Below, in pieces: positions 8,151 through 8,974 of a DNA stretch of 42,217 nt. The stretch is from IMG/VR virus record IMGVR_UViG_2703718801_000022. The stretch is one strand, 5' to 3'. Position 1 is the first letter of the stretch, and every line of letters starts with the position of its first letter. Source of the stretch: a virus. Its lineage: Duplodnaviria; Heunggongvirae; Uroviricota; Caudoviricetes. The notes under the pieces were generated by a model, which saw only the letters and a list, made by a program, of their open reading frames with translations, ran no database searches and had not been told where the DNA came from. The position numbers and the translations under genes were made by a program.

Positions 8151-8199
8151 CTTTAAATAATTCTGTACAGATTGCAGACTGTGGGTGAATAGCGTACTA

Positions 8200-8214
8200 T
8201 TACCTCAAGGGTAA
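8200..8214. promoter_or_regulatory. Operator-like palindrome TTACC-TCAAG-GGTAA at candidate promoter
   Basis: Directly follows -10 TACTAT (8195-8200) of a promoter with -35 TTGCAG (8172-8177) and 17-bp spacer. Confidence 0.45.
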
Positions 8215-8274
8215 ACGGATTGGTTTCATTTTTATTAATCCGTGTAATGAACTTATGAGATATGAGGTAATGTC

Positions 8275-8454
8275 ATGCGAAACGAAAAATTGCAGATGCG
8301 TAGAGCGCAAGCTGCCGCAAGACGTTCTTTCAATGGAAGCGTAGAGTACGTAAAAGTTACTATGACAAAAGATCACGCAAGTCGCGTATCCCGCGCTTTC
8401 TTTGATTCTCGTAACAATAAGGAAAATTATGAGTTCGTCTGCGTCGCAGAATGA
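8275..8454 (+). CDS. Small basic protein, candidate antitoxin/partner of YafO-like gene
   Basis: 59-aa ORF below the track cutoff; GAGGT RBS 6 nt upstream; Arg-rich; overlaps start of downstream gene by 26 nt in another frame. Confidence 0.4.
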   Translation: MRNEKLQMRRAQAAARRSFNGSVEYVKVTMTKDHASRVSRAFFDSRNNKENYEFVCVAE

Positions 8455-8974
8455 TAAAAATCAAATTGTCAGATATAAGGGTCGAGTATTGCATACGCAA
8501 AATTTCTCGGCCCTTTGTGCATCTGATCTTGAGCTGAAGAAAGTATCTGATGCCTTTGCCCAGTATTGGAAAACGGGATACCATCCATCTCTTGGTAAAG
8601 ATGCTGCATTTGCTCGTCCGACAGAAATGCTTAAACTAAATGTCAGGCATACTCATGTCGATAACCAAGACTATATTCCAGAAGATAGTGATAAAAAACA
8701 CACTGGTAAAAAATCATCTTGGGATGCATGGAAAAATATAGCGTCTGTACAAGTAAAATGCATACCAACAAGTGATTGCTTTTTAGTTTATTCGGTAAAT
8801 CACAATCGTGATGCGCTGGTTATGTTTTTTGTTGACGCAGATGCTCACAACATAACTGAGCAAGAAGAGTTTAAAGAGGAAGCAATCACTATCAGTTATC
8901 AATTCTTTGAGAAAACAAAAACAGAACCAATGCCTTTAGAAGAAGATCTTTTTTCTGATAAATGGAAGGAATAG
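8429..8974 (+). CDS. YafO-like toxin domain protein
   Basis: AGGAAA RBS; product resembles YafO ribosome-dependent mRNA interferase as recalled (LGKDAAF...LKLNVRHTHV...CFLVYSV...DADAH); AT-rich. Confidence 0.45.
   Translation: MSSSASQNDKNQIVRYKGRVLHTQNFSALCASDLELKKVSDAFAQYWKTGYHPSLGKDAAFARPTEMLKLNVRHTHVDNQDYIPEDSDKKHTGKKSSWDAWKNIASVQVKCIPTSDCFLVYSVNHNRDALVMFFVDADAHNITEQEEFKEEAITISYQFFEKTKTEPMPLEEDLFSDKWKE

Follow-up and report, generated by a model that had tools for sequence, protein, structure and literature searches.

To our knowledge, YafO is the least understood of the RelE-type toxins of E. coli: we know of no solved structure for it, and of one type of partner only. In K-12 that partner, YafN, is a 97-aa acidic protein of the Phd/YefM type, and the yafNO pair is part of the dinB operon, which is SOS-regulated. 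Among phages, T4 encodes RegB, an early endoribonuclease of the lytic cycle with a RelE/YoeB-like fold. In the published classification YafO is placed among the BECR-fold mRNases of the RelE/ParE superfamily, with the antitoxin gene before the toxin gene, and the higBA modules have the toxin first and an HTH antitoxin (PMC11980606). The ribosome dependence of YafO is disputed (PMC8546651).

The pair of genes described here is carried by a prophage. The window, by which we mean the whole stretch of 42,217 nt that was analyzed, is a prophage of E. coli and belongs to the epsilon15/phiV10 group (genus Uetakevirus). Over positions 8128-9300 its identity is 98.9% with phage TL-2011b and 100% with the prophage of E. 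coli strain OkiPb01680. The cassette resembles K-12 YafN-YafO in the toxin family (PF13957), in the shared motifs and predicted BECR fold of the toxin, and in having adjoining genes with the antitoxin first. It differs in the partner, which is a 59-aa basic orphan, and in its control, as the phage pair appears to stand under a phage repressor operator and encodes no regulator of its own. We read the cassette as a phage-borne, type II-like toxin-antitoxin pair with gating by the phage repressor, and we consider this reading probable while leaving appreciable room for doubt. Its elements are the following.

8172-8200, plus strand: sigma-70-like promoter, TTGCAG at 8172-8177, a 17-nt spacer and TACTAT at 8195-8200
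8199-8215: operator palindrome ATTACC-TCAAG-GGTAAA, a motif of the Uetakevirus repressor type lying over the end of the -10 element and the start site
8264-8267, plus strand: ribosome binding site GAGG of the partner, seven nt before the ATG at 8275
8275-8454, plus strand: gene of the 59-aa basic protein (phrog_6685, pI 10), the candidate antitoxin
8419-8423, plus strand: ribosome binding site AAGGA of the toxin, within the upstream ORF
8429-8974, plus strand: gene, with its ATG at 8429, of a 181-aa YafO-family, RelE/BECR-fold putative mRNA endoribonuclease (assigned from Pfam, hhalign and AlphaFold2)

The first-pass annotation of this DNA had described the promoter, the small ORF with its ribosome binding site and the overlap of 26 nt between the two ORFs, and all of these are present at the positions above. 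It had also noted a resemblance of the 181-aa protein to YafO, which our searches bear out. BLASTP of the 181-aa toxin against K-12 YafO found nothing, so the link is made through profile methods only. The Pfam model PF13957 (YafO_toxin) matches residues 46-152 at 26.3 bits with an E-value of 8e-6, a small margin over the cut-off of 25, and it also matches 30 of 50 toxin relatives. When the toxin-family alignment was compared with K-12 YafO and 15 short homologues, hhalign gave a probability of 99.9% and an E-value of 6.7e-33 over 140 columns, a test that is partly circular because the short homologues had been recruited by the toxin-family profile. K-12 YafO itself aligns end to end with the toxin family in hhalign, and the two have in common the motifs F..YW..G, G[KR]D, RP, HxH, TSD, Y and AH. 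Homology places the 181-aa protein in the YafO family, as a long-form toxin. RefSeq already names it 'type II toxin-antitoxin system YafO family toxin', and in NCBIfam neither the toxin nor the 59-aa partner matched a model. The family is small: a search of 5.8 billion proteins gave 27 clusters with at least 45% identity, and a profile search of 1.84 billion gave 70 representatives. Most members are 160-200 aa long, and the weakest matches of the profile are proteins of 130-150 aa that can be aligned to K-12 YafO and carry the same motifs. HigB2 of V. cholerae, HigB1 of M. tuberculosis and other ribosome-dependent mRNases of the RelE superfamily are much further away, at 8-9% identity to the toxin and, for the HigB toxins, with Foldseek E-values that are not significant. 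In some genomes the toxin gene is frameshifted or truncated (locus L050 at 5001-5535, P0023 and P0048); in L050 the partner gene is intact beside the broken toxin gene, and P0040 derives from the partner region of a different copy, read with a frameshift.

The phage toxin is 49 aa longer than K-12 YafO. The extra length had been ascribed to an N-terminal extension of about 50 aa, and this does not hold: in hhalign residue 2 of K-12 YafO falls on residue 19 of the toxin, which makes the N-terminal extension about 17 aa. The additional residues are these roughly 17 disordered N-terminal ones, an insertion at about 78-117 and a conserved C-terminal tail at 164-181 (MPLEEDLFSDKW). AlphaFold2 run on the 50-sequence toxin alignment produced a model with a pLDDT of 92.6 and a pTM of 0.87, and on 23 close homologues a poor one (pLDDT 58.9). 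The better model has the beta-alpha-alpha-beta-beta-beta(-alpha) fold of the RelE/ParE (BECR-fold) superfamily, can be superposed on solved RelE-like toxins and agrees with the published placement of YafO. A Foldseek search of the PDB with this model gave weak matches with E-values that are not significant, a search of the BFVD viral models gave no match, and sequence searches of the PDB returned nothing meaningful for the toxin family, for the YafO group or for the partner family. In the 50-sequence alignment F43, G56, H76, W98, Y121 and H140 are invariant and W47, G50, D58, P64, S115 and V123 are nearly so. The two histidines, H76 and H140, being invariant across the 50 relatives, are the likely catalytic residues. 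The phage-borne long form of YafO thus supplies a confident fold model together with invariant residues that can be targeted by mutation.

The HMM searches placed only one of the two products, as the toxin stands above the PF13957 cut-off and the 59-aa protein has no similarity to Pfam, the PDB or YafN. It belongs to phrog_6685, a PHROG of unknown function. Pfam and profile searches detected no DNA-binding domain in it, its family matched none of the antitoxin families, and BLASTP gave no alignment with YafN. MAFFT set the partner in the same columns as the C-terminal, toxin-binding part of YafN, and we rejected this correspondence as hhalign gave it a probability of only 0.3%. Neither sequence nor profile similarity makes the partner a member of the YafN and Phd-YefM antitoxins, in line with the earlier remark that it is not of the canonical YafN type.

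Whether the small ORF is a gene at all can be judged from its relatives. Homologues at 75-97% identity are found in Salmonella, Lelliottia, Hafnia and others. In the part that does not overlap the toxin gene the pairwise dN/dS values are 0.16-0.5, mostly 0.2-0.3, which indicates a protein-coding gene under purifying selection, and the ribosome binding site and start are invariant in the compared cassettes. On this pattern of conservation the 59-aa ORF is a real gene, as had been proposed. Its association with the toxin is equally regular. All 44 IMG/VR loci with a toxin homologue have the partner, overlapping or abutting the toxin start, and a small ORF lies upstream of every toxin relative examined, including those in other phage types and chromosomal relatives outside phages. 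The upstream ORF has 63 aa in the cassettes of siphovirus tail modules, 63, 69, 57 and 56 aa before other distant toxins and 52-65 aa before the short YafO-type toxins. In Arsenophonus it has 84 aa, and its C-terminal half (FYNTRNDPSNYE) is clearly like the 59-aa partner. Many of the partners have the common motif M-[ST]-[KR]-[ED]-x-[AS]-[KR]-x-[IV]-[ST]. Most are basic, with a pI of 9-11, while the toxins have a pI of 5-7, neutral to acidic, which is the reverse of the charge pattern of RelBE. With the long form of YafO comes a different and very small partner, one that is met again throughout the family. One distant cassette (L052 at 1630-2594), whose toxin is 44% identical, carries two small genes in tandem ahead of the toxin gene: one of 71 aa with an RHH-like N-terminus (KTIRMTDEHKQLLEKGSRILA) and a partner-like C-terminal half, then one of 55 aa, the partner proper.

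A bicistron in which a small upstream gene accompanies the toxin across lineages is the type II arrangement, and the toxin-antitoxin-like pattern suggested by the first-pass annotation is well borne out by these loci. Another trait of type II modules, an antitoxin with a DNA-binding domain that autoregulates its own operator, was not found here. The pair fits the type II pattern and is not a new kind of system.

The basic character of the partner bears on another reading, in which the YafO-like protein is an RNase of the lytic cycle, acting in shut-off of host mRNA or in transcript processing, and the partner is a cofactor or a specificity or timing factor that might, for example, bind RNA or the ribosome. 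A partner of pI 10 beside an acidic toxin, without similarity to any antitoxin family, would suit this, as would control of the early-promoter type, described below. RegB is a precedent for it, being likewise a phage-encoded RNase of the RelE fold that is expressed early in the lytic cycle, although RegB has no overlapping small partner gene. What speaks against it is that the overlapping antitoxin-then-toxin order is the hallmark of a neutralizing pair and is kept in the chromosomal relatives outside phages, and that broken toxin genes are found beside intact partner genes, as is often the case for toxic genes. We regard this reading as quite unlikely.

The likely control of the cassette can be read from its promoter. 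This is a weak one, with 7 of 12 consensus positions, and was absent from the list of an automatic promoter scan; its TTG and -10 positions are nevertheless retained in eight of nine divergent relatives. The operator palindrome that had been noted at the start site has the core TTACCTCAAGGGTAA at 8200-8214, the first base of which is the last base of the -10 element. ATTACC-N5-GGTAA is invariant in nine cassettes whose surrounding DNA is at 65-80% identity, and this alone would suggest an operator owned by the cassette. A classical autoregulated type II module, in which the 59-aa protein, alone or in complex with the toxin, binds the palindrome at 8199-8215, would explain such invariance. The palindrome also sits where toxin-antitoxin operators sit, a strand-helix stretch in the partner (VKVTMTKDHASRVSRAF) recalls half a ribbon-helix-helix, and the tandem gene of the distant cassette has its RHH-like N-terminus.

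The distribution of the palindrome, however, points to the phage rather than to the cassette. When up to one mismatch is allowed, the window contains TTACC-N5-GGTAA 15 times, and nine of these copies are exact. The expected number is 0.65, and in 100 shuffles the count never rose to 15. The sites are spread over 2950-36782 and so extend beyond the immunity region. Those that bear on the argument are listed here with the genes beside them.

7133, 8200, 26729, 29889, 33601, 33663, 35994, 36706 and 36768: the exact copies of the palindrome
35679-35909, minus strand: cro-like gene adjoining the palindrome cluster
35946-36008: three copies, presumed OR operators, between the cro-like and the cI-like gene
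36064-36648, plus strand: cI-like HTH gene of 194 aa, separated from the cro-like gene by a 154-bp gap
36706-36782: two copies at the early promoter just downstream of the cI-like gene

The early promoter, of the leftward type, has the form TTGACA-17-AATTAT followed directly by TACCTCAACGGTAA, so that the geometry of promoter and operator equals that of the cassette, and the copy at 7133 is placed likewise with respect to the promoter TTGCAA-17-TATATT of the upstream Bro-N gene. Other Uetakevirus loci have several copies of the palindrome apiece. In epsilon15, according to the database record NC_004775 from which we took the annotation, the 17-bp palindrome ATTACC-N5-GGTAAT is marked as 'protein_bind repressor, lysogeny' in seven places, as a prediction, and three of the seven form a cluster next to the gene of the HTH repressor; a YafO-like cassette is absent from epsilon15. 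In siphovirus contexts, the cassettes whose partners are homologous contain no ATTACC-N5-GGTAAT motif, and a different single palindrome is found there. The palindrome of the window is therefore plausibly a site of the prophage repressor, a putative assignment from its position and from annotation made in silico, and by its motif over the promoter at 8199-8215 the cassette would belong to the Uetakevirus repressor regulon. Together with 14 further copies in the prophage, the cro/cI region included, and a partner with no detected DNA-binding domain, these facts make autoregulation highly improbable, and we rejected the palindrome as the cassette's own autoregulatory operator.

Further copies of the palindrome lie near the lysis and acyltransferase genes (3195) and on the tailspike side (6753), and the pair at 29871/29889 is inside a coding repeat rich in Tyr and Gly and may be a coincidence. 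In the siphovirus-borne cassettes a palindrome of a different sequence, TGACG-N4-CGTCA, lies between the promoter and the ribosome binding site (L006 at 5779-5792 and L007 at 5714-5727); these cassettes are inserted between a tail chaperone-like and a tape-measure gene and are followed by a strong terminator.

The separation of promoter and operator from the two genes is seen most directly in phage phiv142-3. There the hairpin upstream, the promoter and the operator are nearly identical to the window, with three differences, as far as one base past the operator. Past the operator the sequence diverges into two unrelated small ORFs of 55 and 52 aa (L061 at 2600-3076), neither of which has a Pfam match, and similarity is back at about position 8976 of the window (query coordinates of the phage search). 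Since the same promoter and operator thus stand before a different cargo, which is also a point against autoregulation, they would be part of the phage backbone, and the exchangeable cargo would be the following segment, as delimited by the break in similarity.

8217-8975, plus strand: both genes with the 5' leader before them, through to the end of the toxin gene

This cargo sits in an accessory region with tailspike-side genes on one side and injection-protein genes on the other, and its immediate surroundings are as follows.

7402-8127, plus strand: antirepressor-like gene with a Bro-N domain, flanking the cassette
7859-8150: left arm of an inverted repeat, covering the 3' end of the Bro-N gene and hairpin sequence
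8136-8154: hairpin GGCACA-GGGA-TGTGCC-TTT, read from the sequence, with compensatory changes in relatives
8974-9000, plus strand: weak hairpin (-11 kcal/mol; z of -1.5, which is not significant) with U6 behind it, perhaps a leaky terminator
9067-9228, plus strand: gene of a 53-aa protein with a signal peptide (phrog_14503), a neighbor of the cassette in the slot
9278-9569: right arm of the inverted repeat, formed by the 3' end of ant
9301-10239, minus strand: P22-type ant gene, the other flank of the cassette

The inverted-repeat slot and the AT-richness of the cassette had both been pointed out before, and both are confirmed: the arms at 7859-8150 and 9278-9569 are 292 nt long and 92% complementary, and the GC content is 0.36-0.44 between them against 0.51-0.60 within them. 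The repeat arises because the Bro-N gene and the ant gene have a common C-terminal domain. Of 532 E. coli genomes that match parts of 8128-9300, 60 have the cassette. The 53-aa gene is common to phiv142-3 and to many of the 532 genomes, in which the region is shared in part and the cassette absent; as it is also found where the cassette is absent, we do not count it as part of the cargo. There is no clear terminator between it and the toxin gene, so co-transcription may occur here.

For the pair behind the repressor operator we propose the following mechanism. The 59-aa partner would be translated first, from one transcript with the toxin, and the stop of the partner 26 nt inside the toxin gene suggests that translation of the pair is coupled. 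The 181-aa toxin, by homology, would most likely cleave mRNA, at or close to the ribosome, so that translation stops, and the partner most likely neutralizes it through direct binding. Control of transcription would be outsourced to a backbone promoter with one prophage repressor/Cro operator covering the -10 element and the start site. The cI-like protein would bind this motif and hold the cassette promoter off in the lysogen, and the pair would be expressed along with the early genes, upon induction or fresh infection. Because the operator has the geometry of an early-type promoter, the pair is expected to be off or at a very low level in a stable lysogen, although a single operator may repress only partly and expression in the lysogen could then occur. 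The earlier description of the cassette as repressor-gated and silent in the lysogen is plausible, given that the operator has what is probably the prophage repressor's own motif. Switch-on with the early genes would favor a role in the lytic cycle or in the decision phase rather than that of a constitutive guard. Candidate roles are shut-off of host translation, fail-safe killing of a derepressed cell and defense through leaky expression, and to each of these singly we give much less credence than to the gated pair as such.

The first-pass annotation had thought of addiction or abortive infection, and the expected silence in the lysogen is where this reading meets a difficulty. A constitutive module of this kind would keep a toxin-antitoxin complex in the lysogen through leaky or repressor-independent expression; the toxin would be freed from it upon superinfection by a phage or when the element is lost. 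The toxin-antitoxin-like architecture agrees with this, as do the AT-rich cargo, the variable accessory slot beside antirepressor genes and the relatives in siphovirus tail modules, which are moron-like inserts with their own promoter and terminator. Toxins of the RelE superfamily are employed in defense (PMC11980606). Classical modules require steady expression in the lysogen, however, and the promoter resembles a repressed phage early promoter with the operator over the -10 element and the start site. Loss of the prophage would also remove the toxin gene, nothing indicates that the partner is unstable, and neither the toxin nor the partner matched a model of PADLOC-DB 2.0 at an E-value of 1 or less. 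An addiction or abortive-infection role therefore seems unlikely to us.

Our literature search turned up no work on this cassette or on YafO homologues from phages. The wiring should be of interest both for prophage accessory genes and for the roles of toxin-antitoxin pairs, as a toxin operon with no regulator of its own is placed behind the operator of the prophage repressor, in a slot that other phages fill with other cargo. A more far-reaching reading would join two ideas, that Uetakevirus phages have a repressor-controlled cargo socket and that an undescribed family of antitoxins lacking a DNA-binding domain is the usual partner of YafO. We offer this combination tentatively and hold it to be possible but doubtful. 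If the first idea were true, the terminator, the promoter and the one operator that follow the Bro-N gene would form a socket into which cargos are swapped, control of the toxin would have passed completely to the prophage repressor, and loss of the repressor would fire an mRNA interferase, as a dead-man's switch or a device for host shut-off. If the second were true, small basic partners would serve both the long and the short YafO toxins, and YafN of K-12 would be the exception.

Several smaller observations were made along the way. The prophage also encodes a 'Gp49 family protein' (27341-27712), which we considered as a second RelE-type toxin and set aside on its name and on inspection of its sequence. 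The 53-aa protein encoded at 9067-9228 has a signal peptide, two Cys residues and a Gly-rich tail. In phiV10 the slot contains a 29-aa ORF only. In the IMG/VR phage L020 (3753-4742) the gene immediately before the cassette, and oriented like it, is ant and not the Bro-N gene. Recombination between the 292-nt inverted repeats, if it can flip the segment that they enclose, would produce such an arrangement; the contig stops before the far side of the slot becomes visible. The OkiPb01680 prophage, otherwise near-identical, has an ISEc8 insertion (IS66 family) in a transglycosylase/injection gene (L053 at 17162-19930), and the window is without ISEc8 at the corresponding position, about 17152. Window positions 34245-35586, which include a 271-aa ORF of the replication region (34497-35312), have no counterpart in the OkiPb01680 prophage, and this indicates a mosaic replacement beside the immunity region.
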